Shown: positions 1-51,228 of the stretch, piece after piece
Position numbering within the stretch: the stretch's first letter is position 1
Layout of the letters: the number at the start of each line of letters is the position of its first letter
From: an uncultured bacterium
GTDB lineage: Bacteria; Actinomycetota; Acidimicrobiia; Spongiisociales; ZC4RG35
NCBI GenBank assembly: GCA_963785075.1
Contig: CAWATW010000001.1
Span: 69,598 to 133,597 of the forward strand
Direction: 5' to 3'
DNA length: 64,000 nt
Position numbers and translations under genes: made by a program
Notes under the pieces: model-generated
What the model was told of the DNA's origin: nothing
Seen by the model: the letters and a program-made list of their open reading frames with translations, nothing else
The model's database searches: none

Positions 1-877
1 CCGGTGCCGCCGAGAACCACCCGCTCGGGTCGGATACACACTCGGGCTGGGCCGTGGGCGTCGACTGCTCCGACCCCGGCGACCAACTCGTGTCCACCGG
101 CGTTGACACGGCACCCGCCGTTCCCGTCGGAGCCGACCGCAGTGGCGTCGAGCAGGTTCGACAGGCCGAGAAAATCGGCGATGGCGGCGGAGGCCGGCTT
201 CTCGTAGACCTCGGCAGGGGTTCCCATCTGTTCGATCAGCCCGTGCGACATGACCGCCAGGCGATCCGACATGGTGAGGGCTTCTTCCTGGTCGTGAGTG
301 ACGTACACGAACGTGATGCCCACCTGTTCCTGGAGTGCTTTCAGCTCGATCTGGAGTGCCTTTCTGAGCTTGGCGTCGAGCGCTCCGAGCGGCTCGTCGA
401 GCAACAGGACGGATGGTTCGAGGATGAGGGAACGCGCCAGCGCAACCCGCTGCTGCTGTCCCCCGGAGAGCTGGGTGGGCCGCCGGTTCTCCAGACCGGA
501 CAGCTGCACCATGTCGAGTGCGCGACCGACCTTGCGGGCGACGTCCTGCTTCGGGATGTCCGCGTACTTGAGCCCGAACGCCACGTTCTCGCCGACGGAA
601 AGGTGGGGGAACAGGGCATAGCTCTGAAACACCGTGTTCACGGGACGCCGATGCGGAGGCACATCCCACATGTCGACCCCGTCGATGCGGATGCTGCCGG
701 CCGTCGGTCTCTCGAAGCCGGCGATCATGCGAAGGGTGCTGGTCTTTCCGCACCCCGACGGTCCGAGGAGCGAGAAGAACTCGCCGCCGGCGACAACCAG
801 GTCGAGTCGATCGACGGCCACGACATCGCCAAAACGCTTGTGGAGTTCGATCAGCTCTACCGTGCCGCCGGCCATGC
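1..877 (-). CDS. ABC transporter ATP-binding protein (PotA/spermidine-putrescine-type), C-terminus runs off window start
   Basis: Minus-strand translation from ATG at ~877 gives Walker A GPSGCGKST, LSGGQQQRVALARSL signature, LLLDEPLGALD Walker B, H-loop VTHDQEEA. The plus-strand ORF 54..1049 is its antisense shadow. The ORF track missed it because there is no stop inside the window. Confidence 0.85.
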
Positions 878-883
878 GGGAGC

Positions 884-2263
884 CTACCCCAGCCCTCTCA
901 GCCGACGAGCGAAGACCTCCAGTGTTTCCAGGTACCGATCGGCGTCCTCCTCGGAGTGCTGCACCGAGATCAGCCATTGCTCACCCTTCGTCCACGGCGG
1001 GAGGAACACACCCCGGTTGAACTGCACGAGCCAGGCCGCCAGCGAATAGCGCCCGTCGATGTGCCGAAGAAACTGCCGGTAGTTCGTGATGGGCTCGCGG
1101 CTGTAGACGATCGAGCCCTTGGCGCCGATGTCGAGCACACGGGCTGGGAGCTCGTAGTCCTCCACGATCCGTCGGGCGCCGTCACCCATGCGTCGTTCGA
1201 CCCGTTCCAGGTGTGCGTAGGTCTCGGGCACCATCACCTCGGTGAGCATCGCCCGCGCAGCCGCCATCGAAAGGGGATTGCCGTTGAACGTGCCGACCTG
1301 TTCATAGGTGCCGTCGACAACCAGTGACATCACCTCGTCGGTGCCGCCTATGGCCGACGTGGGCAGCCCACCTCCGAGCGCCTTGGCGAGGCACACGATG
1401 TCGGGAGTGACACCGAACAGCCTCGTCGCTCCTCCGCGACCGAGTGTCAGGCCCGTCTTCACCTCGTCGAACGTCAACAAGGCGCCGTGCTTCCTCGTGA
1501 GTTCCCGGACCCCTTCGAGGAACCCGTCGAGCGGCGGAACGAGTCCGCAGTTCATGAGCACGGGCTCCATGATCACGCCGGCGATCCGGCCGGCGTGCTC
1601 TTCGAAGATCGATGTGAGCACGTCGAGGTCGTTGAACACCGCCACCTTGGTCAGATCCACCAACGCCTGTGGGATTCCCGGCGAATAGGCGACGCTCGCC
1701 GGCCGCTCGGCGGGCCCGAGATCCTCCTCGACCCAGGTGGAGACCTGGACGGAGTCGTGGTGACCGTGGTAGCCGCCTTCGAACTTCACGATCAGGTCGC
1801 GACCGGTGAACGCTCGCATGAGGTGGACGGCGTCCATCGTGCACTCGGTGCCGCTGTTCCCAAAGCGCCAGAGCGGGAGCCCGTAGCGATCGCTCAGGTT
1901 CTCGGCCACCACCACCGCGTCTTCGGTGGGCTGGGCGAAGTGGGTTCCTCGAGCGACCCTGTCGGCCACCGCCCTGACGATGGCCGGATGGGCGTGCCCC
2001 GCCAGCATGGCGCCGTAGCCGCCGTGGAGGTCGACGTATTCGTTTCCGTCGACATCGAAGACTCGGGAGCCCCTGCCACCGTCCGCCCAGATCGGATGGG
2101 GAAACGAGATCTGCCAGCTCGAGGTGACGCCACCGGCGAGCGATCGCGAGGCGCGATCGGTCATCGCCTTCGAGATCTGCATCCGGTCGAGGAACCGTTG
2201 CCGCTCGTCATCGATGATCCGGTCGAGGGTCTCGAGCTCGGTCTCCTGGCTGGTCGCCACCAT
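884..2263 (-). CDS. class-III pyridoxal-phosphate aminotransferase (GSA/GABA/omega-aminotransferase family)
   Basis: 459 aa with class-III aminotransferase-type conserved blocks (GGYGAMLAGHAHP, FGNSGTECTMDAVHLMRAFTGR, FDEVKTGLTLGRGG). Start at 2263 lies 7 nt downstream of the ABC ATPase start region; its stop is followed closely by the ABC ATPase start, so the two are coupled. Confidence 0.85.
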   Translation of the reverse strand: MVATSQETELETLDRIIDDERQRFLDRMQISKAMTDRASRSLAGGVTSSWQISFPHPIWADGGRGSRVFDVDGNEYVDLHGGYGAMLAGHAHPAIVRAVADRVARGTHFAQPTEDAVVVAENLSDRYGLPLWRFGNSGTECTMDAVHLMRAFTGRDLIVKFEGGYHGHHDSVQVSTWVEEDLGPAERPASVAYSPGIPQALVDLTKVAVFNDLDVLTSIFEEHAGRIAGVIMEPVLMNCGLVPPLDGFLEGVRELTRKHGALLTFDEVKTGLTLGRGGATRLFGVTPDIVCLAKALGGGLPTSAIGGTDEVMSLVVDGTYEQVGTFNGNPLSMAAARAMLTEVMVPETYAHLERVERRMGDGARRIVEDYELPARVLDIGAKGSIVYSREPITNYRQFLRHIDGRYSLAAWLVQFNRGVFLPPWTKGEQWLISVQHSEEDADRYLETLEVFARRLRGLG

Positions 2264-2334
2264 GATGGTCCTTTCCTGAACCGCCGTTCAGTTTACCCGG
2301 CTATCCTGCGGCATGCGTTCCAGGAGGTGACCAG

Positions 2335-3531
2335 ATGCCCCGACCGGTGCCGCTCGACCCTGCGGCCGTGACCGATCTCCTACGTCCGTTCGGTACCAGT
2401 CGCACGCTCCCCGCTGCGGCCTATCGATCCCGTGATGTCTTCGACTGGGAGGTCGAGAACATCTTCGGGGGCGGATGGACGTGCCTCGGACGAACCGACG
2501 ACCTGCTCGCGCCGGGACAGATACGCGCGATCCGCCATGGTGGCGAAGAGTTCCTGCTCGTTCGTGAGGGTGACGGACGGGTTGCAGGATTCTCGAATGT
2601 GTGCCGGCATCGCGGGCACCCGTTGGTGGAACCGGGCGAACCTATCGATGCCCGCCAGATCCGCTGCCCGTATCACTCGTGGGCGTATCGCCTGGACGGC
2701 GCCCTGCGAACCGCGCCCACCTTGACTCGGTCGCCGGACTTCGACACCGCCGACTGGCCGCTCCGGGCGGTACGGGTGGAGGAGTGGCTCGGGTGGTTGT
2801 TTCTCGACCCGTCGGGCTCGGCGCCGTCGGTGGTCGACACCTACGGCAACCTCGCCGAGACCCTCCGGCAGTACGAGCCCGAGCGTCTCGTCCGCGCAGA
2901 GCGTCACTCATACCAAGTCGCCGCCAACTGGAAATTGATCGTCGAGAACTATCACGAGTGCTACCACTGCTCTTCGATCCACCCGGCGCTGTGCGAAGTG
3001 ACGCCGATCGACAGCGGGTCCGACTTCCGTCCGACGGGGCTGTGGTGCGGCGGCACGATGGACCTCAAGGATCATGCCGTGACGATGTCGCTCACAGGCG
3101 AGTCGGGAGGCACCTTCTTCCGACGCCTGGAGAGGGAGATGGAGCGGCAGGTCCTCTACATAGGCCTTTGGCCCAATCTGTTGATCTCGGCGCATCCCGA
3201 CTACCTGATGACCCATCGCATCGTTCCGCTCGCCGCCGACCGTTCACATGTCGAGTGTGACTGGTACTTCTCACCGGAATCGACGTCGCTCGAGGGATTC
3301 GATCCGGCGTACGCAGTCGACTTCTGGGACCTCACCAATCGTGAGGATTGGACCGCCTGCGAGCGAGTGCAACGGGGTGCGGGAAACCGAGGGTTTGCGC
3401 CCGGACCCCTGAGCCCCTGGGAGTCGACGCTGTATCAGTTCCTCGGCATGGTCGGTCGGGCCTACTCGGGCGAGGTGGTCGTACCGCCGGAGGCGCCTTC
3501 GAGGCGTCTGGCCGAGTCGAGAGGCGACTGA
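2335..3531 (+). CDS. Rieske [2Fe-2S] non-heme-iron oxygenase alpha subunit, GbcA/CntA/Stc2 (quaternary-amine) clade
   Basis: Rieske motif CRHRGHPL...CPYHSWAY. Catalytic signature NWKLIVENYHECYHCSSIHP is typical of glycine-betaine/carnitine/stachydrine N-demethylating oxygenases. No cognate reductase gene is adjacent. Confidence 0.85.
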   Translation: MPRPVPLDPAAVTDLLRPFGTSRTLPAAAYRSRDVFDWEVENIFGGGWTCLGRTDDLLAPGQIRAIRHGGEEFLLVREGDGRVAGFSNVCRHRGHPLVEPGEPIDARQIRCPYHSWAYRLDGALRTAPTLTRSPDFDTADWPLRAVRVEEWLGWLFLDPSGSAPSVVDTYGNLAETLRQYEPERLVRAERHSYQVAANWKLIVENYHECYHCSSIHPALCEVTPIDSGSDFRPTGLWCGGTMDLKDHAVTMSLTGESGGTFFRRLEREMERQVLYIGLWPNLLISAHPDYLMTHRIVPLAADRSHVECDWYFSPESTSLEGFDPAYAVDFWDLTNREDWTACERVQRGAGNRGFAPGPLSPWESTLYQFLGMVGRAYSGEVVVPPEAPSRRLAESRGD

Positions 3532-3545
3532 ATCGAGTCCCCCGT

Positions 3546-4766
3546 CTACCCGGCGACGATCCCCAAGCCACGTTTCCTCAGCTGGTCGGCGATGATCACC
3601 CGCTGCACCTCTGAAGCCCCCTCCCAGATCCTGTCCACCCGGAGTTCACGGTTGAATCGTTCGGCGACGTTCTCGCGCATGTATCCCCGACCGCCGAAGA
3701 TCTGAACGGCGCGGTCCGCCACCCGGCATGCCATCTCGGATGCGTACAGCTTCACCATCGAGCAGTGGACGTGGAGTTGCTTGACATCCGCTCCGGCATC
3801 GACCTCTGCAGCCACCTCGTAGGTCATCAGCCGTGCCGCCCAGAGCTCGGTGAGCGAATCGGCGAGCATGAACTGGATCGCCTGACGATCGGCCAGGGGC
3901 TCACCGAAGATGACCCGCTGCTCGGCGAACGCCTGTGCTTCCGTGATCAGCCGCTCGGCTGCGCCACAGCACCGGGCCGCGATCATCAGGCGTTCGTACC
4001 TGAACCACTCGTATGTGAACGACATGCCGGCGCCCTCCCCACCGACCAGGTGCGTCGCCGGAACCCTCACGTCGTCGAAGGCCATCTCCCAATGGTGGTG
4101 GGCGTAGGTGTGTGTGTAGGACGGGGTGCGGATGTGCCGGACGCCGGGCGTGTCCATGTCCACGATGAACAGGGCGTGGCCGCCGGCGTCGGGTCCATTC
4201 GTCAGCCGGGCCTGGAAGAACACGTAGTCGGCCAGATTGGCGGAGGTGACGTGCCACTTCTGTCCATTGAGTACGTAGTGGTCGCCATCGCGGCGTGCAG
4301 TCGCCTTGATGGCGTCGACGTCAGAACCTGCGTCTTCCTCCGTGATCGCATAGCACTCGTGCTTCTCCCCGGCGATGGTGGGGAGGACATATCGCTCCAT
4401 CTGGTAGTCCGAGGCGACCGTCGGCAGCCACCCTGCGGGCGTGGTGACGACCCAGCCGAGGGCGTTGGTGACCCGGCCCGCCTGCTCTTGGACCAGCGCC
4501 TGTTGGACGGTGGTCAGCCCGGAGCCTCCGAGTTCGATGGGCTGATTGATGGCCGTGAGGCCCATCTCGCGCGCCGTCCGCTCGTGGCGGGCGGAGACGT
4601 CCGCGGGGATGGTGCCGTCATTCATCTCGGCGTGGACTTCCCACGGTATCAATTCGGTGTCGACGAACCGGCGAGCCGTGTCTTGGATCGCCCGGTCCTC
4701 TTCTGACAGTCGGATCACCACAGCTCCCTGTTTCCTGAACGACGGTTCAGTGTACGAGTTCGACAC
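3546..4766 (-). CDS. acyl-CoA dehydrogenase
   Basis: 406 aa. Contains ACAD C-terminal motifs QIFGGRGYMRENVAERFNRELRVDRIWEGASEVQR and the middle domain GQKWHVTSANLADYVF. Confidence 0.85.
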   Translation of the reverse strand: MSNSYTEPSFRKQGAVVIRLSEEDRAIQDTARRFVDTELIPWEVHAEMNDGTIPADVSARHERTAREMGLTAINQPIELGGSGLTTVQQALVQEQAGRVTNALGWVVTTPAGWLPTVASDYQMERYVLPTIAGEKHECYAITEEDAGSDVDAIKATARRDGDHYVLNGQKWHVTSANLADYVFFQARLTNGPDAGGHALFIVDMDTPGVRHIRTPSYTHTYAHHHWEMAFDDVRVPATHLVGGEGAGMSFTYEWFRYERLMIAARCCGAAERLITEAQAFAEQRVIFGEPLADRQAIQFMLADSLTELWAARLMTYEVAAEVDAGADVKQLHVHCSMVKLYASEMACRVADRAVQIFGGRGYMRENVAERFNRELRVDRIWEGASEVQRVIIADQLRKRGLGIVAG

Positions 4767-4830
4767 GCCGCCGGTCGTCTGTTCGGTGCGTTCTGATCGC
4801 CGACGTCGGGTCTCGGCGATCGTTCCGGGG

Positions 4831-5878
4831 TCAGGGGATGATGACGGTGCGGGCCGGGCCCCGGTTGGCTTCGAGGTCGTCCATCACACCGTTGACCGCA
4901 GCTGCCTCGAGAGGAACACGTTGTTCGACGACCTGACCGAGTTCGAGGCGACCGCGAACCGCCATGTCGAGGAGCACGAGGATGTCGTCGATGTGATGGT
5001 CCGATACGCCGCTGAGCTCCGCCTCGCGCATCGCCAACTCCGGGAACGGGGCCACCTCGATCGGCTGATCCGAGATCCCAACCGACACGGCCCGTCCTCC
5101 GATCCCCAGGACATCCACACAGGCGCGCATGGTCGCGGCGAGCCCGATCAGCTCGAGCGCGACGTCGACACCGTCGCCGTCGGTGGCGGCCAGCACCCGG
5201 TCGGCCACGCCGTCACCGCCTTCGATCGGGGCTCGCACCGAGACGCGCGGCGAGGTCGAGTTTGGCGGGATCGAGGTCCACGGCAAGTACTCGTGAGGCG
5301 CCCATGGCGAGGGCGATCTGGATCGCCGACGTCCCCAATCCACCCGATCCGAACACCGCCACGCTCTCACCATTCGTGAGTCGGGCCTTGCGAAAGGCAT
5401 GCATGGACGTGGCCGACGAGCACATCATCACCGCCCCGTGCTCGAACGCGATCTCGTCGGGGAGGTGGATGGCGTTGCGCGACGGCACGGTGATGTACTC
5501 GGCATACCCACCGTCGCGGCTTCTCCCCAGCATCTGTCCGCTCTCGCAGAACTGGTCGTATCCGCGTGCACATCGGGCAGCAGGCCGTACAGGCGGTCTG
5601 ATAGTGGAGGCAGACTCGCTCGACCGGTTCGTCCCGGATCCACGAGCGAGCCCGTCCGTTCGATCACCCCGGCCACTTCGTGTCCGAGCGTCCTCGGCAG
5701 GGAATCGACCGACCGTGGGCCGCGTCGGTAGTGAACGTCCGAGTGGCAGATCCCGGCGGCAGCCACCTTGACCACCACGTCCAAGGGGTCGGGTTCGGTG
5801 GTCGGCAGTTCCCTCGATTCGAGGGGTGATCCGATCTCGACCAGTTGCAGGGCGCGCATGCCGAGCATGCTCGCAGGT
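4831..5878 (-). pseudogene. Zn-dependent alcohol dehydrogenase (MDR family), split over at least three frames
   Basis: N-terminal part (GICHSDVHYRRG...TLGHEVAGVIE) sits in the frame of ORF 5428..7446. The middle part (CARGYDQFCESGQ...DGGYAEYITVP...AVFGSGGLGTSAIQIALAMGA) is in ORF 5213..5920. The C-terminal part is in ORF 4831..5400. Total span is about 349 codons, so at least two frameshifts. Confidence 0.5.
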
Positions 5879-5951
5879 CGACGGCTCCCCAAGACCGTTC
5901 TGTGGGCGGTGGTCCGCCATTTTGGCGGTCTATAACCCTGGGTTCGATGTA

Positions 5952-7388
5952 TCAGAGCTTGATGTAGAGCTGTTTCTCTTCGAGGTAGGCCTCGATGCCC
6001 CACGGTCCGAGCTCGCGTCCCACCCCCGACTGCTTGAAACCTCCCCACATGCCTTCCGTCGGTGCCGGCTGGGAGTCGTTCACCCATACGACCCCGGCGC
6101 GGAGCGCCCTGCCGAGGCGCATCGCCCGCTTGAGATCGGTCGTCCACACCGCCGCCGCCAGCCCGTAGGTCGAGTCGTTCGCCAGCAGTATCGCCTCGTC
6201 TTCGTCGCGGAAGGGAATCACCGACATGACCGGTCCAAAGATCTCCTCCCGGGCGATCGTCATGCGGTTGTCCACGTCGGCGAAGATCGTGGGGGCGACG
6301 AAGTAGCCGTCTGCCAGGTCGTTCCCCTCGGGGAGGTTGCCCTGGAAACTGAGGCGAGCGCCTTCGCTCATCCCCGTGGAGATGTAGCCGGACACCTTGT
6401 CGCGGTGCTCCGCCGAGATCAGCGGACCCATGGTCGTGTGGGGATCGAGGCCGCTTCCAAGACGTATGGCCGCCGCCTCGGCGGTCAAGGCGCCGAGAGT
6501 CTCTTCGTAGATGGACGCCTCGACCAATACCCGGCTTCCTGCCGAACACACCTCGCCCTGGTTGGCGAACAGCCCGGCCGACGTCCCTCCGATGGCGGCC
6601 GACATGTCCGCATCGGCGAAGATGAGGTTCGGCGACTTGCCGCCCAGTTCGAGGGTGACTCGTTTGAGGGTGTCGGAGGCTTCCCTGGTGATGATCTTTC
6701 CGACCTCGACGGACCCTGTGAACGAGATCTTGTCGACCCCGGCATGGCCGACGAGTGACGCCCCCGTCTCGCCGAAGCCGGTGAGCACGTTGAAGACGCC
6801 CGCCGGCAGGCCTGCCTCGTCCAACACCGTTGCCAGCTCCAACGCGGTGAGCGGCGTCTGTTCTGCCGGTTTCAGGATGGCAGTGCATCCCGCGGCGAGC
6901 GCCGGCGCCACCTTCTGGCTGGCCATGAGGATCGGGTAGTTCCACGGGGTGATCAGCGCCGCCACCCCGACGGGCTCCTTGATGACGAGGCTCAGCGCCT
7001 CCGGACCGATCGGGGGGATGCTCCCCATCGTCTTGGTGGCCCATCCGGCGTAGTACTCGAACATGAAGGCGGCTTCGTCGATGTCCCACAGGGCGTCCTC
7101 GAGCGGTTTGCCGTTGTCGCGTACCTCGATCTCGGCCAGCTCCCGTCTCCGCCGCCGGATGATCTCGGCGGCTCTGAACAGCACGGCCGCCCGGTCCCGG
7201 GGAGCCGAGTCCGGGCCCCAGGGCCCGTGGTCGAACGCTCGTCGGGCCGCACCGACCGCCTGTTCCACGTCGTCGGGCCCGGCGACGGGAATCTCGTCGA
7301 TCACCTGACCGGTTGCCGGGTCGCGGGTGTCGAACCAGGTTCCCGAACGCGGCTCGGCCCACGCGCCGTCGATGAAGAGCTGTCGCAT
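5952..7388 (-). CDS. NAD(P)-dependent aldehyde dehydrogenase
   Basis: Embedded in ORF 5952..8273, starting MRQLFIDGAW. ALDH motifs are present: TLELGGKSP, catalytic Cys region GEVCSAGSRVLV, and EEIFGPV. The start overlaps the upstream gene's stop (TGATG). Confidence 0.9.
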   Translation of the reverse strand: MRQLFIDGAWAEPRSGTWFDTRDPATGQVIDEIPVAGPDDVEQAVGAARRAFDHGPWGPDSAPRDRAAVLFRAAEIIRRRRRELAEIEVRDNGKPLEDALWDIDEAAFMFEYYAGWATKTMGSIPPIGPEALSLVIKEPVGVAALITPWNYPILMASQKVAPALAAGCTAILKPAEQTPLTALELATVLDEAGLPAGVFNVLTGFGETGASLVGHAGVDKISFTGSVEVGKIITREASDTLKRVTLELGGKSPNLIFADADMSAAIGGTSAGLFANQGEVCSAGSRVLVEASIYEETLGALTAEAAAIRLGSGLDPHTTMGPLISAEHRDKVSGYISTGMSEGARLSFQGNLPEGNDLADGYFVAPTIFADVDNRMTIAREEIFGPVMSVIPFRDEDEAILLANDSTYGLAAAVWTTDLKRAMRLGRALRAGVVWVNDSQPAPTEGMWGGFKQSGVGRELGPWGIEAYLEEKQLYIKL

Positions 7389-8983
7389 CAGGAACGCGCC
7401 GCTCGGTCTCGAAGGATCTGCTGGGAGGCGAGACGGCCCGGCGCACCCATCACACAGCCCCCGGGGTGGGTGCCCGATCCACACTGGTAGTACCCCTCGA
7501 TCGGTGTCCGGTACTGACTCCACCCTGGGGCGGGCCGGAAGAAGAACATCTGGGGGGCGAGAAACTCGCCGTGGAAGATGTTGCCCTCGGGAAGGCCGGC
7601 GATCTGTTCGATGTCGAGCGGAGTGACGACCTCGCGTTGGATCACACGCTCGGAGAAGCCCGGGAAGAACGACTCGAGCGTTCGTTGCACCGTGTCGCCG
7701 AGGTTGTCCCGTTCGGTGTTCCAATCGCTGCCCTTCAGCTCGTACGGGGCGTATTGGACGAAACACGACATCACGTGCTTGCCGGGCGGAGCCATGTCGG
7801 GATCGATTGCAGACTGAACGGCGCAGTCGAGGTACGGGCGGGACGAATACCAGCCGTACTTCGCATCGTCGAACGCCCGCTCGAGGTACTCGATGCTCGG
7901 CCCGATGTTGGTGAACCCGCGGTACTTGTCGATCCCGTCGCCAAGCGTGGGGTGCGGGGGAGGAGCGTCGAGTGCGAAGTTCACCTTGGCGGATGTCCCC
8001 TGATAGCGATATCGATCGAGAGCGTCCACCAACTCGGTCGGCAGCTCTCGGGGATCGACGAAGTCGAAGAACGTCCGCCTCGGATCGGCGGCGCTCACCA
8101 CCACATCGGCCGAGAGCTCGGTGCCATCGGCCAGCGCCACGCCGGTGGCACGTCCGTTGTCGGTGACGACATGGGCGACTTCGGTTCCCAGCATGATCTC
8201 GGCGCCGAAGCTCTCGGCGGCTCGGGCCAGCACCTGGGTGAATCCGCCATTCCCGCCCTTGTGGAACGCCCACGCGCCGAACACCCCGTCGTGCTCACCC
8301 ATGTTGTGGAACAAGAGCACGAGCCCCGAGCCCTGCGACATCGGCCCGACCTTGGTGCCGATGATTCCGGAACTGGCGAGCCACCCCTTCACCACGTCGG
8401 ACTCGAAGTAGTCGTCGAGGAAGTCGGATGCGCTTCCGGTGAGCAGGCGGACGAGGTTGTGCAGCACCCTCGGTTCGAGCCCACGCATGTGTTGGGCCAG
8501 CTCCGCCATGTCCGCCAGATCTTCCGGCGTCTTGCCGAGGACGTTCGGAGGGATCTTGTCGAACCATGGGCGCACGGCCTGGATCACCCTCGTGATGTCG
8601 TGCTCGTATTGTTCGAAGGCGTCGGCGTCGCGCTTGGAGTGCCGTGCGATCTCGTGGATGTTCTCGTTTCGGTCCTGGCCGAGAAGCAGATAGTCCCCGT
8701 TCTCCATCGGGCAGAAAGTGCTTGGCATGAGCAGTGGCATGAAGCCGTGCTTGGTGAGCTCGAGCTCGTGGATGATCTGGGGCCGGAGCAGGCTCAGGGC
8801 GTACGAGAAGGTGGTGAAGTTGAACCCCGGCCGTAGCTCCTCGGTTATGGCGGCCCCTCCGACGATCGAACGTCGCTCGAGGATCAGCGTGTCGAGTCCC
8901 GCCTTCGCCAGGTAGGCGCCGTTGGTGAGGCCGTTGTGGCCTCCGCCGATCACGATGGCGTCGTAGGTGCGGTCGCTCGGCAT
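7388..8983 (-). CDS. FAD/NAD(P)-binding oxidoreductase, phytoene-desaturase-like (COG1233 amine-oxidase superfamily)
   Basis: Starts MPSDRTYDAIVIGGGHNGLTNGAYLAKAGL (Rossmann GxGxxG). About 531 aa. Both the start and the stop overlap neighbouring genes by ATGA. Confidence 0.8.
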   Translation of the reverse strand: MPSDRTYDAIVIGGGHNGLTNGAYLAKAGLDTLILERRSIVGGAAITEELRPGFNFTTFSYALSLLRPQIIHELELTKHGFMPLLMPSTFCPMENGDYLLLGQDRNENIHEIARHSKRDADAFEQYEHDITRVIQAVRPWFDKIPPNVLGKTPEDLADMAELAQHMRGLEPRVLHNLVRLLTGSASDFLDDYFESDVVKGWLASSGIIGTKVGPMSQGSGLVLLFHNMGEHDGVFGAWAFHKGGNGGFTQVLARAAESFGAEIMLGTEVAHVVTDNGRATGVALADGTELSADVVVSAADPRRTFFDFVDPRELPTELVDALDRYRYQGTSAKVNFALDAPPPHPTLGDGIDKYRGFTNIGPSIEYLERAFDDAKYGWYSSRPYLDCAVQSAIDPDMAPPGKHVMSCFVQYAPYELKGSDWNTERDNLGDTVQRTLESFFPGFSERVIQREVVTPLDIEQIAGLPEGNIFHGEFLAPQMFFFRPAPGWSQYRTPIEGYYQCGSGTHPGGCVMGAPGRLASQQILRDRAARS

Positions 8984-10182
8984 CAACTGGTCTTTCTCTC
9001 GGGGTTGAACAACGGGAGCCGGGCCGTATGGGCCCCCACCAGCTGGTACTGATGGTCGATCGTGTATTCGAGGTTCACCTTGGTACCAGGCGTGGCGGCC
9101 TCGGGTCGGACCCGGGCCAGGGCGATGTGGCGTTGGAGCATCGGCGAGTACATCGAGCTGGTGGCGTATCCGACACGGCTGCCGTCGTCGGTGTACACCA
9201 TCATGTCCTCTTGGATGGGCGTGTGGTCCTTCGGCGGTATGAGACCGGCCCGGGTGTATTGGGCGTCGTAGTCCTCCCAATCGACCATGAGCCCGACCAT
9301 CTTCCAGCGAGTGGAGCCGTCGGCCAGTTCCCGGCGAATCGCGTCCCGACCGATGAAGGCACGGTCGGTCGTGGTGACGTCCTTGAGCATCCACCCCAAC
9401 CCCAATTCGTGCGGCGTCGAGCGGTGGGCATCGTTGAACGCGAAGCGCGCCGACTCGAAATCGACGTTGATGAGCAGCAAGCCGGCCTCGATGCGAGCCA
9501 TGATGAGCGCGATCTGGCCGAAGGGAATCAGTCCGTACGGTCGACCTTCGTCCATGACCGCGTCCCACACCGTGAGCGCGTCGCCGCTGTCGACCCACAC
9601 CTCGTATCCGAGATCCCCCGTGTATCCGGTCCGCGAGATGATGACCGGGGCGTCGGCGATCTTCGCCGTCGTGTGGTCGAAGTATCCGATCGACTCCATC
9701 TCCGGAGCCAGCTTGGCGAGGATCTGCCGGCTCTTGGGTCCCTGTACCGCGAAGGCCGCCATCTCGTAGGTCGTGTCGACGATCTCGACCTGGAGCCGAC
9801 CCGCGAGATCGTGGAAATAGGCCATGTTCGGCTCGGCGGTGCTGAGGAGAAACTCGTCTGCCGACAGTCGGAGGATCACTCCGTCTTCGAGCACGAAGCC
9901 CCGATCGTCGCACCAGATCTGATATTGGGCCTGGCCGGGACGGCATGTGCGGATGTCGCGAGCGAGCACTCCGGCCAGGAACCGCTCGGCGTCGGAGCCC
10001 CGGATGCGGTACTTGAACAACGGCGACGTGTCGAAGATGCCGGCGGAGTTGCGGATCGCGAAGTACTCGAACTTCTCGCTCATCTGGTACTTCTCGGCAA
10101 CCAGATGCCCTGCCCAGTGGCTCCACAGGCCGGTCTCGTTCAGTTTCTCGACGCGGTCGTGGAACGGAGTGGTGCGTATCAC
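8983..10182 (-). CDS. GcvT-family (glycine-cleavage T / DmdA-like) folate-dependent aminomethyltransferase
   Basis: 399 aa. Contains the GcvT-type block RTGYTGDLGYEVWV and a folate-binding domain-like C-terminus. It is the first gene of the minus-strand operon. Confidence 0.85.
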   Translation of the reverse strand: MIRTTPFHDRVEKLNETGLWSHWAGHLVAEKYQMSEKFEYFAIRNSAGIFDTSPLFKYRIRGSDAERFLAGVLARDIRTCRPGQAQYQIWCDDRGFVLEDGVILRLSADEFLLSTAEPNMAYFHDLAGRLQVEIVDTTYEMAAFAVQGPKSRQILAKLAPEMESIGYFDHTTAKIADAPVIISRTGYTGDLGYEVWVDSGDALTVWDAVMDEGRPYGLIPFGQIALIMARIEAGLLLINVDFESARFAFNDAHRSTPHELGLGWMLKDVTTTDRAFIGRDAIRRELADGSTRWKMVGLMVDWEDYDAQYTRAGLIPPKDHTPIQEDMMVYTDDGSRVGYATSSMYSPMLQRHIALARVRPEAATPGTKVNLEYTIDHQYQLVGAHTARLPLFNPERKTS

Positions 10183-10431
10183 GGGTCGTTCTCCCTCTCA
10201 GGCGCCTCCCTCGACGCCGTCCTCGCCCAGACTATATGTTGTTGGACGCGTGTGCAGCAATGGCGAGAGGCGGTTTCCGGTCCCCGCTGTCGAGCCTCGG
10301 ACCTCGGACCCGACACCAATGCGGCACGTCCGCCGTACGACCGTGGGTGGGTTGACCCGGACACCGGACTCTCTCGCCCCACCGACTGACCTTGCTCGTT
10401 GCTTCCCCATGACCGGATCTAGGCTCGGTCC

Positions 10432-11040
10432 ATGCGCCGCATGCAACCAGAGGATCGCCGTCAGGCGATCATCGACGCCGCGGTCGCGGTGGCGCTGAGA
10501 AAGGGATTGGCGGCCACCACCGCCCGGGATGTGGCAGCCGAGATGGGGACATCGTCCGGTCTGATCCATCACTACTTCGATTCGATGGACGACGTACTCG
10601 CATCCGCGTTCGAAGTCGTTGCGGCCGCGGATCTCAACCGGACCACCTCGGCGATGGAGCTGGCGTCGGACCCGGTCGACAAGCTGAGAGCCTTTTTCGC
10701 CGACTACGCACCGGCGGACGACGATCGTGCGTACCAGTTGTGGCTCGACGCGTGGTCGGAGGCGGCCCGCCGACCCGCCCTCCGGACCACGTCGCTGCGG
10801 CTCAACGAAGCCTGGCAACAGGAACTCGCCAAGGTGATCGCCGACGGCGCCGTCGAGGGCTCTCCGGCCTCTCAGGACCCCGACGGAGCGGCATGGCGCG
10901 TGATCTCGATGCTCGATGGCCTGGCCCTCCAGGTGGTGGCACATCGGGCCAACGTCAGTCGGTCCACTGCGCTCGGCTGGGCCATCACCATGACCGAACA
11001 CGAGCTCGGTCTCGCCCAGGGAACGCTTCGACACCCATGA
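10432..11040 (+). CDS. TetR-family transcriptional regulator
   Basis: N-terminal HTH LAATTARDVAAEMGTSSGLIHHYF. 202 aa. Transcribed divergently from the demethylase operon. Confidence 0.85.
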   Translation: MRRMQPEDRRQAIIDAAVAVALRKGLAATTARDVAAEMGTSSGLIHHYFDSMDDVLASAFEVVAAADLNRTTSAMELASDPVDKLRAFFADYAPADDDRAYQLWLDAWSEAARRPALRTTSLRLNEAWQQELAKVIADGAVEGSPASQDPDGAAWRVISMLDGLALQVVAHRANVSRSTALGWAITMTEHELGLAQGTLRHP

Positions 11041-11768
11041 GTCGAAATCGAGGGGCGGCTTCGACAGCGCACCAGCTCGTCGATCGGGCACATCGACTGC
11101 TCGAGTCCACGCCACGGCGGTCCATCATCGGAATCACAGGGCCTCCCGGCTCCGGCAAGTCCACGCTCGCAGCACTTGTCGCAGCGGGTGTGAACGCACG
11201 CAGTGGAAACGAAAGTCCCATCTGCGCGGTCGTCCCGATGGACGGGTACCACCTGTCGGACGCGGCGCTCGTCGCCCTCGGTCGGCTCGAGCGCAAGGGA
11301 GCGATCGACACCTTCGACGGGTTCGGCTACCTGGCACTGCTTCGACGCCTCGTCACGGAGTCCGATCGCCAGGTGTTCGCCCCGTCGTTCCATCGTGATC
11401 TCGAGCAGCCCATCGCAGCCGGGATCATCGTGGAGCCCTCTGTACGCCTGGTCGTCACCGAAGGCAACTACCTCCTCATGCAGGACCGACCATGGCCGCA
11501 GGTGCGGGCAGTGCTCGACGAGGTCTGGTATTGCGACATCGACTCCGATACCCGCACTCCGCGCCTCGTCGCCCGCCACGTGGAGCACGGCAAGCCTGCC
11601 GCGGCAGCCGCACGATGGGTTGCCGAGGTCGATGAGCCCAACGCCGAGCTGATTGCGTCTCGCCGTGCTCAGGCCGACCTGGTGGTGGACATGGCCGACA
11701 TCGGGGGACCCCGGGCGGCGCCATCCGATGGGTCGTCCTTCGAACCCGGCTTAGGTCGGCTCGAGTGA
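11037..11768 (+). CDS. P-loop nucleoside/nucleotide kinase-family protein (PRK/uridine-kinase-like)
   Basis: Start ATG overlaps the TetR stop (ATGA). Walker A GITGPPGSGKST. Resembles FrcK/uridine-kinase-type small kinases. Confidence 0.7.
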   Translation: MSRNRGAASTAHQLVDRAHRLLESTPRRSIIGITGPPGSGKSTLAALVAAGVNARSGNESPICAVVPMDGYHLSDAALVALGRLERKGAIDTFDGFGYLALLRRLVTESDRQVFAPSFHRDLEQPIAAGIIVEPSVRLVVTEGNYLLMQDRPWPQVRAVLDEVWYCDIDSDTRTPRLVARHVEHGKPAAAAARWVAEVDEPNAELIASRRAQADLVVDMADIGGPRAAPSDGSSFEPGLGRLE

Positions 11769-16246: not shown

Positions 16247-17677
16247 GTGCCGGCCCCGAAGACACAGTACGTTCGCGACGGCGATGTGCACATCGCCTGG
16301 CAGGAGATCGGTGACGGACCGATCGACGTGCTCGTGGCCCCCGGTTTCATCTCGCACCTCGATCTCAACTGGACGCACCCGGCGTTTGCGACGTTCGTCG
16401 AGCAACTTGCGCGTTTCTCGCGGGTGATCCTGTTCGACAAGCGCGGTACGGGGCTGTCGGATCACGCGGCCGACGCCGACCGATTCGAGCGACGCATGAC
16501 GGACATCGAGTTGGTGCTCGACGCCGCCGGGTCACGCCATGCGGTACTCCTGGGGCTGTCGGAAGGCGGGCCGCTCGCCTCCCTGTTCGCCGCCACCCGG
16601 CCCGACCGGGTCGAATCTCTCGTGCTCATCGGCACCTTCGCCCGGGGCTCCGTGATCCCGTCCGACGTCCTCGACAGGTTCGAGCACGCCGTGGACAACT
16701 GGGGTGAGGGACATACGGCCGGCATCTTCCTCGCAGGCTCCGACGGGCCGGTGGTTCGTCGCTTCACGGCGCTGTTCGAGCGTGCGGCCGCCAGCCCTGG
16801 AGTGGCTCGCCGCCTCTTGCGTTCCATTGCCAGCTGCGACGTGACCGGAGTGCTTCCGGCCATTCACACTCCTACGCTCATTCTCCACCGAACGGACGAT
16901 CCGTTCGCTCTCACCTCGTGGAGCGACGAGATCGAAGCCTTGCTTCCGAACAGCACGAGGATCGAGCTCCCGGGAAGCGATCACCTCCCCTGGATGGGAG
17001 ACGGGTCTGCGATGGCGGTCGAGATCGAGACCTGGGTCACGGGGAGCCGGCCCGTGCGGGTCCCCAGCCGGTCCCGGTTCGCGGCGGTGCTGTTCTCGGA
17101 CATCGTCGACTCGACGCCCCGGGCTGCCACGGCGGGCGACTCCGAGTGGTCACGTCTCATCCAACGCCACAACGACATATGCCGTGATCTTTTCGCGATC
17201 CACGACGGTTGGGCCGTCAAGAGCACCGGTGACGGGTTTGTCTCGTGTTTCGACCGTCCCGAATCGGCCGTGCGTTGCGCCGTCGACCTGCACCGAACGC
17301 TCGAGGGACAGGGGATCGAGATTCGCGTCGGCCTGCACTGTGGAGAGATCGAACGGGTCGACTCCGACGACGTCGCCGGAATCACCGTGAACATTGCAGC
17401 GCGGGTGTGTGCGTCGGCCGAACCGACGTCGACGATCGCCACCGAGATCTTCGCCGATCAGTTGGTTGGGTCCGATGTCGGCGTGCAGAGCATTGGAACA
17501 CACAGGCTACGCGGGGTACCAGGGTCTGTGGCGTTGGTCCGACTGGCGGTCCAAGACATCGTCGTTGATTTGCGCGAGCTCGAGGACGAGCGCGTCACCG
17601 GTGGCATCACCCTCGAGCTCGCCCGGAGAAGCCCCGGATTGGTGCGCGGGCTCGCACGGTTGTCCGGAGCACGGTGA
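16247..17677 (+). CDS. alpha/beta-hydrolase fused to class III adenylyl/guanylyl cyclase catalytic domain (LipJ/Rv1900c-like)
   Basis: N-terminal GLSEGG nucleophile elbow and hydrolase fold. C-terminal cyclase homology domain (FSDIVDSTPRA...KSTGDGFVSCF...IRVGLHCGE). GTG start after AGAGGAA. Confidence 0.8.
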   Translation: MPAPKTQYVRDGDVHIAWQEIGDGPIDVLVAPGFISHLDLNWTHPAFATFVEQLARFSRVILFDKRGTGLSDHAADADRFERRMTDIELVLDAAGSRHAVLLGLSEGGPLASLFAATRPDRVESLVLIGTFARGSVIPSDVLDRFEHAVDNWGEGHTAGIFLAGSDGPVVRRFTALFERAAASPGVARRLLRSIASCDVTGVLPAIHTPTLILHRTDDPFALTSWSDEIEALLPNSTRIELPGSDHLPWMGDGSAMAVEIETWVTGSRPVRVPSRSRFAAVLFSDIVDSTPRAATAGDSEWSRLIQRHNDICRDLFAIHDGWAVKSTGDGFVSCFDRPESAVRCAVDLHRTLEGQGIEIRVGLHCGEIERVDSDDVAGITVNIAARVCASAEPTSTIATEIFADQLVGSDVGVQSIGTHRLRGVPGSVALVRLAVQDIVVDLRELEDERVTGGITLELARRSPGLVRGLARLSGAR

Positions 17678-31556: not shown

Positions 31557-32555
31557 TCAGAGGCGGGCGGCGGAGCCGGTTCGGAGGTGACACGCGGCGA
31601 GGTGCCCCTCGCTGTTCGTCCGATCCGGCGCGAGTTCGGGGACGGTGATGTCGCAGAGCCCGGGCTCGGCGATGGGGCAGCGCGGATGGAAGTGGCATCC
31701 GGCGGGTGGGTTGAGCGGCGAAGGGATCTCACCTTGAAGGATCTGACGGTCCCGGCGGCGGGTGGGATCGGCGACGGGAATCGCGCTGAGGAGCGCCTCC
31801 GTGTAGGGATGCAGCGGATGCTCGTAGAGGGTGGTGCGATCGGTGACCTCGACCACCCGTCCGAGATACATCACGGCCACACGGTCCGAGATGTGTTCGA
31901 CGACCGCGAGGTTGTGGGCAACGAACATCAGGGTCAGGCCGAGCTCGCCCTGCAACTCCTTCAGCAGGTTCAGGACCTGGGCTTGAACCGACACGTCGAG
32001 TGCGCTGACCGGTTCGTCTGCGACCACGAAGTCGGGTTCGAGGATCAGCGCCCGTGCGATTCCGATTCGCTGCCGCTGGCCTCCCGAGAACTCGTGTGGG
32101 TAGCGGCCTGCATGATTCGGGCTGAGACCGACGAGCTCCAGCATTCTCGACACTCGAGCGCGTCGCTCTTCGGTGTCGCCCACCCGATGAATACGAAGAC
32201 CCTCGGAGATCGAGTTGCCGACCGGAGTTCGGGGGTCGAGTGAGCCGTACGGATCCTGGAAGATCATCTGCACGCGGCGACGGAAGGGCGCCAGGGTCTT
32301 TCCTTCCAGGTGTGCGATGTCGACGCCGTCGAATTCTATCGAGCCGGCCGTCGGCTCGAGGAGGCGAACCAGCATCCGCCCCAGCGTGGTCTTCCCACAT
32401 CCGGACTCGCCGACAAGACCGACCGTTTCTCCACGTGCAATGTCGAGATCGACGCCGCCAACGGCTTGCACCTGTCCGACGGTTCGCTGAAGCCAGCCGC
32501 CCTTGACCGGAAAGTCCTTGCGCAGTCCTTTCACCCGAACCAGCGGCTCAGTCAT
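31557..32555 (-). CDS. ABC di/oligopeptide-type transporter ATP-binding protein (DppF/OppF-like)
   Basis: Walker [10 protein letters not shown], signature [15 protein letters not shown], and the C-terminal oligopeptide-type extension. Start at about 32555 overlaps the upstream stop (ATGA). Confidence 0.85.
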
Positions 32556-35590: not shown

Positions 35591-35646
35591 GGTTGGCAGA
35601 GTGAGGGGGGCGCCCACTGGGCGCCCCCCTCAGCGTTTGGAGAGAC

Positions 35647-37359: not shown

Positions 37360-37442
37360 ATTCCTCCCTGTTCGAGGGCCCTCTCGGAAAAAGGCCACCC
37401 GACCACGCTAGCGATGCAACGCCGCACGTGCGATGCGGCGGA

Positions 37443-42435: not shown

Positions 42436-42598
42436 GATGCAGACGGTACCGAGTCTCGGGTGCCGGGTCCCGGGTCTCGGGTCACCAGTCTCGGGTCTCG
42501 GACGGCGTTCGCTGCGGCGTCGGCTGTCGGCCGGCTGCCGTTCACCCTGCGCCGACCACTGGCCGCGCAGCGCGGTTCGGCGTCACACGCTCGCTTTC

Positions 42599-43934: not shown

Positions 43935-44029
43935 GGACCGAGGGTAGGCCGGTCGACCGCAGGCCAGGGGAGTCGAATCCAACCTTGGCACGATGGCCGA
44001 AAGGTGGCTGACCCTTTACGCTGACCGCC

Positions 44030-49476: not shown

Positions 49477-49488
49477 GAGCCGCCGATG

Positions 49489-50067
49489 CTACCCGGCCTC
49501 TGCACCTCGGACCGTGCAGTCCATGACGGAGGCGACCAGGTCGGTCCGATTCATCGGCCCGTCGGGTCGGTACCACCGGTCGACGGAATTGAGAATCGAA
49601 AGGAGGTAGATGACGAACATGCGGACGTCCAGATCCGGTCGGAACGTTCCGTCTGCCACGCCCGCCGTCATCACCGTCCGGAATGCCTGCTCGTATCGAT
49701 CACGCGCCTCGACGACCGTGTCACGCAGGGTGGTTTCGAGCGTGGTCGCCTCGTTGAGAAACGTCCGCGCCTCGTCGAGGTGGTCGAGCACCACTCCGAC
49801 GTGACCTGCAACGAGGAGTTGCAGCCGTTCGAGGGGCGTCTTGCCGGTCTCGAGCGCGTTGCGTGCGGACGCCTCGAAGAGATCGGCGCCGCGCATCACG
49901 ACGTCGACCAACAGGTCCTCTTTCGACGTGATGTGCGAGTACAACGAGCTGCCGTTGAGGCCGAGCTCCCGACCCAGGTCTCTCATCGATGTGCCGTGGT
50001 ACCCGCGACTGGCGAACAGCCTTCCTGCGGCCCTCACGACGTCTTCGCGGGTGTTGCGCGTCGTCAT
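49489..50067 (-). CDS. TetR-family regulator, candidate PaaR of the paa operon
   Basis: HTH GTSMRDLGRELGLNGSSLYSHI. The start overlaps the paaE stop (ATGA). An operator-like palindrome lies upstream of paaA. Confidence 0.75.
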   Translation of the reverse strand: MTTRNTREDVVRAAGRLFASRGYHGTSMRDLGRELGLNGSSLYSHITSKEDLLVDVVMRGADLFEASARNALETGKTPLERLQLLVAGHVGVVLDHLDEARTFLNEATTLETTLRDTVVEARDRYEQAFRTVMTAGVADGTFRPDLDVRMFVIYLLSILNSVDRWYRPDGPMNRTDLVASVMDCTVRGAEAG

Positions 50068-51125
50068 CGCTGATCGAAGTCCACCACGACCCGGTCCGAT
50101 CGTGGATGGGCCTGGCACGTGAGGGTGAAACCGCGGCTCAGGTCTTCTTCGACCAGGGCGAAGTTCCTGGTCATCTCGACCTCTCCCTCGGTCACCTTGG
50201 CTTTGCAGGATGCGCACATCCCTCCACGGCACGAATACGGCAGCTCCGGCCGCACGGACAGGGCGGCGTCGAGAAGCGACGTCTCTGGATCGAGTCGGAC
50301 GCTCGACTCGCGACCATCGAGAGTGAAGATCATCTCCGTGGAACCGCTGTGGGAGACGGGCGCTCGCACGACGTCGATCGGTCCTGAGAAGAAGAGCTCG
50401 TCGTGCACCGACTGAGGGTCTGCGCCGTGGTGCTCGATGAACGATCGGGCTGCGGTCACCATCTCATACGGTCCGCACAGGAACCACTCGTCGACCGAAC
50501 CGAAGTCCACGAGCGTGGCAAAGAGGGCACGAAGGCGCTCCTCGTCTATGCGGCCCGTCAAGAGCGGCACCGTCTCCTCTTGCGAAAGTACGTGGATGAG
50601 GTGCAGCCGGGATCCGTACCGGTCCTTCAAACCCTCGACCTCGTCGAGGAACATCACGGAGGTGGCTCGGCGATTGCCGAAGATGATCGTCCATCGCGAC
50701 CCCGGTTCCTTCTCGAGGGTCGTGGAGACGAGTGACAACACGGGTGTGATACCCGAGCCGGCGACGATCGCGCATCGGTGAGCTGAGACCTCGGCGTCGG
50801 CCTCGATGACGAAGTCACCGATCGGTGCCATCGCCTCGAGAATGTCACCAGCCCTGAGTCGAGTGGTGGCAAAGGTGGAGAAGGCACCGTCTTCGAGACG
50901 CTTCACACCGATCCTGAGCTTCCCCTGGTTGGCATTCGAGCAGATCGAGTACGACCGTCGGACGTCCACGCCGTCGATGAACGCCCTGAACACCATGTGC
51001 TGCCCGGGCAGGTAGCGGAAGACATCCCTCAGCTCCCCGGGCACCTCGAGCGAGATGGCCACCGCATCATCGGTCAGCTCGGTGACCTCCGTCACCTCGA
51101 GTGGATGAAACTCCAGTGGTGTCAT
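50064..51125 (-). CDS. paaE: 1,2-phenylacetyl-CoA epoxidase reductase subunit PaaE (FNR-like + plant-type [2Fe-2S] ferredoxin)
   Basis: RxYS FAD motif RRSYSICS, NAD-binding GSGITP, and C-terminal CRGGMCASC...C cluster. Confidence 0.85.
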   Translation of the reverse strand: MTPLEFHPLEVTEVTELTDDAVAISLEVPGELRDVFRYLPGQHMVFRAFIDGVDVRRSYSICSNANQGKLRIGVKRLEDGAFSTFATTRLRAGDILEAMAPIGDFVIEADAEVSAHRCAIVAGSGITPVLSLVSTTLEKEPGSRWTIIFGNRRATSVMFLDEVEGLKDRYGSRLHLIHVLSQEETVPLLTGRIDEERLRALFATLVDFGSVDEWFLCGPYEMVTAARSFIEHHGADPQSVHDELFFSGPIDVVRAPVSHSGSTEMIFTLDGRESSVRLDPETSLLDAALSVRPELPYSCRGGMCASCKAKVTEGEVEMTRNFALVEEDLSRGFTLTCQAHPRSDRVVVDFDQR

Positions 51126-51228
51126 GCGTGCTCCGAGGCGTTCAGCGCCGGTAGGACGTTGAACGTAGAACGTAGAACGTCAGAGAGGGTCGTGACGACG
51201 GCGAACCGTGCTCGTGCGATCCGCACGC

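Follow-up and report, generated by a model that had tools for sequence, protein, structure and literature searches.

Which compound do the genes at one end of a 64-kb stretch of DNA from an uncultured soil bacterium of the class Acidimicrobiia break down, and by what chemistry? The stretch, called the window below (64,000 nucleotides; positions 69,598 to 133,597 of contig CAWATW010000001.1, GenBank assembly GCA_963785075.1), begins with a run of genes (positions 1-11768) that includes a Rieske oxygenase, a GcvT-like protein, a flavoprotein of the PYROXD2/CrtO family and several dehydrogenases. An earlier reading made without database searches (below, the sequence-only reading) saw here a cluster for methylated-amine demethylation and traced a route to succinate that starts from a betaine such as gamma-butyrobetaine or N-methyl-GABA. 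All of our tests agree with the general idea, but the specific substrate route finds no support in them. We propose that these genes serve to break down an N-methylated ammonium compound taken up from outside, and that their core, the GcvT-like protein and the flavoprotein, is a two-subunit folate-coupled oxidative demethylase. We give this reading a probability of roughly 0.45.

Conservation of the GcvT-like/flavoprotein pair

The two core genes head a minus-strand operon in which the GcvT-like gene is followed by genes for the flavoprotein, an aldehyde dehydrogenase (ALDH), the remnant of a zinc-dependent alcohol dehydrogenase (Zn-ADH) and, last, an acyl-CoA dehydrogenase (ACAD). The junctions between the GcvT-like and flavoprotein genes and between the flavoprotein and ALDH genes both read TGATG, with stop and start codons overlapping by one base. 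A search for the GcvT-like family scored 8000 candidates, 5857 of them at E ≤1e-10, and the best 120 relatives were 65-95% identical and came mostly from metagenome bins of Acidimicrobiia. A scan with one genome per species confirmed at least 598 relatives, from which the best 80 loci were analysed. These loci belong to Acidimicrobiia, Thermoleophilia, Acidobacteriota, Gemmatimonadota, Planctomycetota, Myxococcota, Neomarinimicrobiota, Chloroflexota (Limnocylindria, Anaerolineae and Ardenticatenaceae) and Nocardioidaceae, the last including the cultured Nocardioides aquiterrae, N. aequoreus and strain SR21. The carriers thus represent seven or more phyla, mostly from soil metagenomes.

Of the loci that extend at least 1.5 kb beyond the GcvT-like gene, all 68 of 68 have the flavoprotein gene immediately after it, at a median distance of about 20 nt. 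Neighboring genes were counted in the 36 loci with at least 8 kb on both sides of the pair: a Rieske gene is found near it in 6/36, an aminotransferase in 5/36, an ACAD in 6/36, an ALDH in 3/36, and an ADH or a kinase in 0/36 each. The full gene set is confined to a subclade of Acidimicrobiia (L001, L003, L004, L012, L015 and L076), of which L001 is the closest relative of the window (87-89% nucleotide identity, with synteny across 20 kb). The evolutionary unit is the GcvT-like/flavoprotein pair and not the full gene set, which the sequence-only reading took as the unit; that reading listed both genes without recognizing them as the core. A regulator with a TetR_C_6 domain is a frequent neighbor: it stands divergently beside the pair in L001, L002, L084 and L086, inside the cluster in L003, and as a fragment in L087.

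The GcvT-like protein as a candidate folate subunit

The GcvT-like protein carries both the GCV_T and the GCV_T_C domain. Its best solved match is the tetrahydrofolate (THF) domain of trimethylamine N-oxide (TMAO) demethylase, Tdm (9q59, residues 407-783; 159 bits), and it aligns with folate domains of the DMGDH/SARDH/DMGO type at 74-94 bits. When aligned to 1WOO and 1YX2, the aspartate of ExDG, SRTGYTGDLGYE and RIEAG line up with T proteins, and the folate-site motifs of the family (RTGYTG-x-x-G-x-E and R-x-EA) are kept along with the catalytic Asp. The C-terminal domain of Tdm binds THF with a Kd of ~149 nM, and takes channelled formaldehyde to form methylene-THF, according to a 2026 cryo-EM study (PMC13619132). 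The window protein is probably a THF-binding protein as well, and is a candidate for the subunit that accepts the one-carbon (C1) unit.

By its scores and its surroundings it is not the T protein of glycine cleavage. Both T-protein models failed (TIGR00528, 147.7 against a cut-off of 235.85; PRK00389, 196.1 against 300), and neither gcvH nor gcvP was found within the 64-kb window or beside the GcvT-like gene in L001-L003 and L084-L087. The models for two demethylases failed too, namely DmdA (NF009133, 132.3 bits against 410) and Tdm (NF053776, 249.7 bits against 1100), the latter matching only at model positions 385-759.

The flavoprotein and its relation to PYROXD2

The sequence-only reading rightly placed a COG1233 flavoprotein next to the GcvT-like gene, while its label of "amine-oxidase-like" gives way here to membership in the CrtO/PYROXD2 family. 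Among curated models, CrtO fits best (NF045689; 290.9 bits against a cut-off of 1000), sources name the protein "phytoene dehydrogenase-like", and similarity to SoxB is restricted to the Rossmann segment. An AlphaFold 2 model built from a diverse alignment of 89 sequences (pLDDT 95.7) confidently predicts a fold of the CrtI/amine-oxidase superfamily. The solved folds nearest to this predicted model are the carotenoid desaturases 4rep (TM-score 0.75-0.81) and 4dgk, followed by the flavin amine oxidases NicA2, pseudooxynicotine oxidase and putrescine oxidase, with all fold matches at most 18% identical.

Human PYROXD2 (query matched exactly to NP_116098.2/Q8N2H3) aligns with the window flavoprotein from end to end (40% identity over 544 columns; E 5e-127) and has a score of its own of 266.7 bits on the CrtO model. 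Every GcvT-paired flavoprotein is 36-44% identical to the human protein. Eukaryotic PYROXD2 proteins are among the best 150 matches in an exhaustive search of 1.84 billion representatives, the oyster protein ranking at about 29th (41% identical, 406 bits); none of these best 150 representatives is a fusion of GcvT and flavoprotein. In a tree of 125 sequences, which is a rough BLOSUM62 neighbor-joining tree without support values, the GcvT-paired proteins form a clade of their own and the eukaryotic PYROXD2 proteins group with other bacterial subfamilies.

Human genetics connects PYROXD2 to methylated amines. [quoted passage not shown] Variants of PYROXD2 are linked to N2-acetyl-N6,N6-dimethyllysine (PMC13352909), and biallelic variants have been reported in a severe infantile metabolic disorder (PMC8777681). 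All of the PYROXD2-associated metabolites are N-methylated amines. A link to formaldehyde comes from P0284, an 816-aa protein on a 13.7-kb Logan assembly contig, in which a PYROXD2-like protein (43% identical to the window flavoprotein) bears an N-terminal glutathione-dependent formaldehyde-activating (GFA) domain (PF04828, 59.7 bits). This fusion hints at a second, independent tie of the family to formaldehyde handling, and may be read as a Rosetta-stone sign of formaldehyde production.

We suggest, as a tentative and on balance somewhat unlikely proposal, that PYROXD2-family flavoproteins are oxidative N-demethylases of tertiary and secondary methylamines that yield C1 units at the formaldehyde level, which in a large clade of bacteria the dedicated GcvT-like subunit would pass directly to THF. 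No paper that combines PYROXD2 with demethylase or folate terms was found in the literature searched. If the proposal is true, human mitochondrial PYROXD2 would, by extension, take methyl groups off such compounds as trimethylamine, dimethylamine or N6,N6-dimethyl-lysine, which would explain the PYROXD2 mQTLs and possibly also the infantile mitochondrial disease.

A second PYROXD2-like paralogue (~29-38% identical) directly follows the paired flavoprotein gene in L080 (12804-14303) and L083 (11795-13294), and partial copies are found in L077 (4749-5345) and L079 (7925-8680). In two unrelated phyla, a gene for an AhpC/TSA-type peroxiredoxin lies just downstream of the pair (L032, 13805-14278; L070, 13794-15032), a position that might point to the flavoprotein being an H2O2-producing oxidase.

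The Rieske oxygenase

The Rieske protein scores 65.7 bits on PF00355 and 154.7 bits on PF00848, and its [2Fe-2S] motif CRHRGH...CPYH is encoded at 2602-2676. Its best PDB matches are Stc2, a stachydrine demethylase (142 bits), and CntA, a monooxygenase of carnitine (132 bits); aromatic dioxygenases reach 73 bits or less. The motif VENYHECYHCSSIH corresponds to CntA E205/C206/H208/C209/H213, where the window reads E-C-Y-H-C-S-S-I-H, and a Cys-x-x-Cys pair beside the iron ligands is peculiar to Group V quaternary-ammonium Rieske oxygenases (PMC10952381). The GbcA equivalog model failed (NF058607, 168.8 bits against a cut-off of 670). The sequence-only reading had recognized a GbcA/CntA-class enzyme from the E-C-x-H-C...H signature, and these searches bear it out: judged by motifs and scores, the protein is a Group V quaternary-ammonium oxygenase and is not GbcA itself.

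Rieske genes also adjoin the pair in Ilumatobacteraceae (L002 and L008), Nocardioides (L050 and L060) and Gemmatimonadaceae (L080 and L083), where the encoded proteins are 32-37% identical to that of the window and all carry N-Y-x-E-C-x-H-C-xxx-H. Group V Rieske genes thus recur beside the pair in four separate lineages. In L003, the Rieske gene lies on the same strand as the GcvT-like gene and immediately upstream of it. In L080 and L083, the order of genes is ACAD, acyl-CoA ligase, RidA, TPR protein, GcvT-like protein, flavoprotein, second flavoprotein paralogue (37% identical to the paired one) and Rieske oxygenase, and such a set of one oxygenase and two flavoproteins would fit the stepwise loss of the three methyls of a trimethylammonium group.

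PaaE (50064..51125), about 47 kb away, is the sole reductase of the FNR/[2Fe-2S] kind anywhere in the 64 kb, which agrees with the claim of the sequence-only reading that the Rieske oxygenase has no reductase partner nearby. PaaE was rejected as a dedicated Rieske reductase, as it sits within a complete phenylacetyl-CoA epoxidase operon (paaABCDE; 49117-53769, minus strand) together with a TetR and an FlK-like thioesterase.

Proposed pathway and alternative explanations

In the pathway that we propose, an N-methylated and probably quaternary substrate would be brought into the cell by a Pot-type ABC system. Since a flavin cannot oxidize a quaternary nitrogen, the Rieske oxygenase would act first, either by removing a methyl group or by cleaving a C-N bond, with electrons from a reductase encoded elsewhere. 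The flavoprotein could then convert an N-methyl group on a tertiary or secondary amine into an iminium or carbinolamine by oxidation, and the GcvT-like protein would place the C1 unit on THF as 5,10-methylene-THF, so that free formaldehyde would not be released. The carbon skeleton may be handled by the aminotransferase, the ALDH and the ACAD, and formerly also by the now decayed ADH. A TetR repressor with a BetI-type domain would control the operon. We infer these catalytic steps, the complex of the two core proteins and the substrate from gene content, motifs, homology, gene adjacency and translational coupling, all of which are observed. The catabolic surroundings (TetR repressor, ABC importers, ALDH and ACAD) support the proposal. 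No prior description of a pair of GcvT-like and phytoene-dehydrogenase-like proteins, or of an actinobacterial Rieske/GcvT amine cluster, was found in the literature, and the composition of the region matches no pathway described there, as the sequence-only reading had maintained.

Several observations weigh against a demethylase pathway of this kind. Rieske genes are missing from 30 of the 36 large loci, and many genomes have the pair alone with a TetR, as in L086, where the TetR, GcvT-like and flavoprotein genes lie amid unrelated genes. No FNR/ferredoxin reductase of the GbcB/CntB type was found in the first 1-16 kb of the window or in L001-L004. The ACAD is left without an explained role, because no CoA ligase was found within the window. 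Amine oxidation by the flavoprotein is argued from context, since its only characterized relatives at the sequence level are carotenoid enzymes. PYROXD2 appears to be a sister subfamily (~40% identity) among many, which points to family-level homology and not orthology; it falls outside the GcvT-paired clade, and human genetics therefore gives only indirect support. The GFA fusion, for its part, is a singleton and comes from one assembly. Lastly, in some Limnocylindria (L019, L032 and L018), a thiamine pyrophosphate (TPP) riboswitch (6108-6211, 6454-6557 and 435-537, respectively) is followed by a thiamin pyrophosphokinase gene and a YkoE/D/C-type energy-coupling factor (ECF) transporter, and the pair begins 30-190 nt past the last transporter gene of this thiamine-uptake operon. 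The pair may be co-transcribed with the operon in these bacteria, which the demethylase model does not account for. As most loci lack a Rieske gene, with the pair in many genomes standing alone and in some after a thiamine operon, the Rieske, aminotransferase and transporter genes could form a separate module.

The alternative that survives best, although we consider it rather unlikely, takes this last point further: the region would be a mosaic of independent modules and not one pathway, and the proximity of its genes would reflect loose metabolic clustering. The modules would be (i) TetR, the GcvT-like protein and the flavoprotein, with or without the ACAD, (ii) the Rieske oxygenase, the aminotransferase and the Pot-type importer, and (iii) the ALDH and ADH. 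The low counts of Rieske and aminotransferase genes near the pair are in keeping with a mosaic, as is L002, in which the modules are about 6 kb apart with other genes between them. The pair also occurs alone in L086 and beside a different transporter (SBP_bac_3) in L084, and in the window itself the Rieske and aminotransferase/ABC genes are transcription units apart from the GcvT operon. In contrast, the Rieske genes that adjoin the pair in at least four distant lineages, Gemmatimonadota included, belong to differing subfamilies, and such recurrence would be unlikely without a functional link. The arrangement of the Rieske and GcvT-like genes in L003 also argues against independent modules.

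Whether the flavoprotein acts on an amine at all can also be questioned. It could act on an isoprenoid or carotenoid-like substrate, or on some other C-H bond, with the GcvT-like protein having a role other than the capture of C1 units from N-methyl groups. CrtO is the top curated model, the nearest structures are those of carotenoid desaturases, and the score of PYROXD2 on the same model makes the entire radiation "CrtO-like". Yet the CrtO score of the window protein lies far under its cut-off, no carotenoid or isoprenoid genes were seen near the pair in any locus examined, and the neighbors that are found are of amine and betaine type. An invariant partnership with a folate-type aminomethyltransferase makes no sense in carotenoid chemistry, and we regard a non-amine substrate as improbable.

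Demethylation of a sulfonium compound, of the dimethylsulfoniopropionate (DMSP) type, is another reading, favored by the ACAD that comes after the pair in the window as it does in L003, L004 and L049: the GcvT-like protein would correspond to DmdA, itself a member of the GcvT family, the ACAD to DmdC, and the AMP-ligase of Gemmatimonadaceae to DmdB, with an ACAD and an AMP-binding ligase upstream of the pair in L083. This explanation is very improbable, given that the DmdA model failed and that DmdA works without a flavoprotein, which leaves the invariant FAD partner unexplained. Furthermore, the carriers come mostly from soil metagenomes, and the substrates of Group V Rieske oxygenases are quaternary ammonium and not sulfonium compounds.

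The pair could instead be biosynthetic, acting as a methylene or methyl transferase that depends on flavin and methylene-THF and is comparable to ThyX, TrmFO or MnmE/MnmG. MnmE has a GcvT-like folate domain and partners the FAD protein MnmG, and flavin/CH2-THF methylation is established chemistry. The operon surroundings are nevertheless catabolic, no biosynthetic neighbors were found, and PYROXD2 expression correlates negatively with methylamine levels, so that a biosynthetic role seems still more improbable than sulfonium demethylation. Finally, a plain glycine-betaine (gbcAB-dgcAB-sox) or carnitine (cntAB) locus of known type, to which GbcA as the top Rieske hidden Markov model (HMM), the ALDH resembling betaine-aldehyde dehydrogenase (BADH) and the BetI-type domain of TetR would point, is already contradicted by gene composition, as GbcA, BADH (557.7 against a cut-off of 668.6) and BetI (64.8 against 201.3) all fall short and no GbcB/CntB reductase, DgcAB, SoxABDG or carnitine dehydrogenase was found in the window. 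None of the outcomes that the sequence-only reading had named as refuting it came about.

A methyl-lysine route was weighed as well, in which trimethyl-lysine would be converted to lysine and then degraded by an aminotransferase, an ALDH and glutaryl-CoA dehydrogenase. It stays speculation: no downstream enzyme, of the three, scores as a lysine aminotransferase, a piperideine-6-carboxylate (P6C) dehydrogenase or a glutaryl-CoA dehydrogenase. It agrees with the human dimethyl-lysine association and with the basic-amino-acid-type transporter in L084.

Layout of the locus and accessory genes

Reading frames were picked by their third-position GC content and then checked with Pfam and NCBIfam, and every gene that the sequence-only reading had listed in the region was found (Table 1). 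The GC content is 64-69% and even along the whole window, and the region is therefore not a horizontally acquired "island." The Rieske gene is convergent with the ACAD gene and divergent from the aminotransferase gene across a 72-bp spacer; tetR is divergent from the GcvT-like operon and overlaps at ATGA the kinase gene, which is co-transcribed with it.

Table 1. Genes at the start of the window (coordinates are window positions)
Feature	Coordinates	Strand	Domains and remarks
PotA-like ABC ATPase	1..875	-	PF00005; C-terminus beyond window edge
Class-III pyridoxal phosphate (PLP) aminotransferase, HemL-like, 459 aa	884..2263	-	PF00202
Rieske non-haem-iron oxygenase alpha subunit, Group V, 398 aa	2335..3531	+	PF00355 + PF00848
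ACAD, ~395-406 aa	3546..4766	-	all three ACAD domains
Zn-ADH pseudogene	~4831..5860	-	ADH_N and ADH_zinc_N pieces in different frames
NAD(P)-dependent ALDH, 478 aa	5952..7388	-	PF00171, 564 bits
PYROXD2/CrtO-family FAD flavoprotein, 531 aa	7388..8983	-	PF01593/PF13450
GcvT-family protein, 399 aa	8983..10182	-	PF01571 191.9 bits + PF08669 47.1 bits
TetR, BetI-type C-terminal domain	10432..11040	+	PF00440 + PF13977
PRK09270-type nucleoside/nucleotide kinase	11037..11768	+	NF006743

Annotation of the accessory genes lends no support to the route to succinate. The aminotransferase, which had been taken as GABA-type, is HemL/GSAM-like: its best PDB match is GSAM (280 bits, against ~112-135 bits for GabT), and it scores 343.5 on the hemL HMM (cut-off 527.3) and 133-143 bits on GabT models (cut-offs 500-725). 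Its divergent arrangement with the Rieske gene recurs in L001-L004, L008, L012 and L015. The best NCBIfam match of the ALDH is betaine-aldehyde dehydrogenase and not succinate semialdehyde dehydrogenase (SSADH; TIGR01780, 413 against a cut-off of 646); the ALDH is present in L001 and elsewhere seldom lies near the pair. The ACAD is generic and resembles the medium- and short-chain enzymes (MCAD/SCAD; ~198 bits in PDB), and it directly follows the flavoprotein gene in L003, L004 and L049; the route to succinate has no step for it. The Zn-ADH is decayed, as had been noted before, with three 1-bp insertions (~5623, ~5578 and ~5234) relative to the intact 341-aa orthologue in L001.

The ABC ATPase scores 367 bits on PotA and 340 bits on PhnT2, each below the cut-off. 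Orthologous loci add two BPD_transp_1 permeases and an SBP_bac_1/8 binding protein, and those of the window lie beyond its edge. No clear palindrome that could serve as a TetR operator was found in the 250-bp divergent region, and no riboswitch was found within the 64-kb window or in L084 or L086. In Nocardioides sp. SR21, a Guanidine-III riboswitch (L057, 320-382) lies ~9.6 kb upstream of the pair and is probably unrelated to it. The kinase beside TetR, also seen by the sequence-only reading, exceeds its cut-off (NF006743, 275.6 bits against 227); it is not conserved, since of all loci only the window and L001 have it, and probably stands outside the system.

Elsewhere in the window, a gene on the plus strand (16247-17677) encodes an alpha/beta-hydrolase fused to an adenylate/guanylate cyclase catalytic domain, a fusion kept in L001. 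An Opp/Dpp-type peptide ABC operon (31557-37705) has an SBP_bac_5 gene (35647-37705, minus strand) that is broken across two frames near 36.6 kb; this gene, the window's second with a frameshift, is either a pseudogene or an assembly error. The minus strand at 40223-44764 has an intact gene for a Zn-ADH (40223-41656), one for a class I/II aminotransferase (41245-42435) and one for a DAO-family FAD oxidoreductase (42599-44764), the last a long open reading frame with its DAO domain at residues 282-684. In L087 (ERZ25039547 contig_133709), the gene calls for the GcvT-like protein, the Rieske oxygenase, TetR and the transporter are all fragmentary, which suggests many frameshift errors in that long-read assembly and calls for caution with pseudogene calls from this source.

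Significance and comparison with known systems

Methylated amines and betaines are major sources of carbon, nitrogen and C1 units in soil and sea, and the described routes for removal of their methyl groups come almost entirely from Proteobacteria. Hundreds of species-level genomes, in at least seven phyla, carry the GcvT-like/flavoprotein pair, and many of these carriers belong to soil lineages that are abundant but little cultured, among them Acidimicrobiia, Limnocylindria and Gemmatimonadota. If our proposal is true, the pair is a previously unrecognized folate-conserving demethylation system. It would also provide a concrete biochemical hypothesis for PYROXD2, which holds some of the strongest mQTL signals for trimethylamine and dimethylamine.

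Among known systems, GbcA, CntA and Stc2 share with the window Rieske protein both of its domains, the bridging Glu and the Cys-x-x-Cys pair. The window protein is about equally distant from all characterized Group V members, has no adjoining GbcB/CntB-type reductase and, unlike GbcA, CntA and Stc2, comes linked with genes for a HemL-like aminotransferase and for a Pot-type importer. The DmdA/DmdB/DmdC system likewise combines a GcvT-family protein with an ACAD and, as in Gemmatimonadaceae, a CoA ligase, whereas DmdA needs no flavoprotein and neither DmdB nor DmdD is present in the window. PYROXD2 (Q8N2H3, mitochondrial) has the same Pfam signature as the window flavoprotein, and on the CrtO model the two reach ~270-290 bits; they are not orthologues, and no GcvT-like partner is known for PYROXD2. 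Tdm offers the closest solved relative of the GcvT-like protein in its THF domain. The N-terminal Zn/DUF1989 catalytic half of Tdm is lacking in the window protein, whose putative catalytic partner is the flavoprotein.

The logic proposed here resembles the C1 capture of Tdm, and also that of dimethylglycine dehydrogenase or oxidase (DMGDH/DMGO), sarcosine dehydrogenase (SARDH) and heterotetrameric sarcosine oxidase, in which the N-methyl group is oxidized by a flavin and the C1 unit is caught on THF by a module of GcvT fold. In those last enzymes, the flavin domain is of the DAO type and is either fused to the folate domain or part of a SoxABDG assembly. In contrast, the window flavoprotein is of the CrtI/PYROXD2 type and is a separate, translationally coupled polypeptide. 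If the PYROXD2-family demethylase proposal is true, the pair would amount to dimethylglycine dehydrogenase in split form, with a flavoprotein whose fold is not homologous. The joining of a flavin to a GcvT-like folate module is a known principle; new to it are the family of the flavoprotein and the division between two polypeptides.

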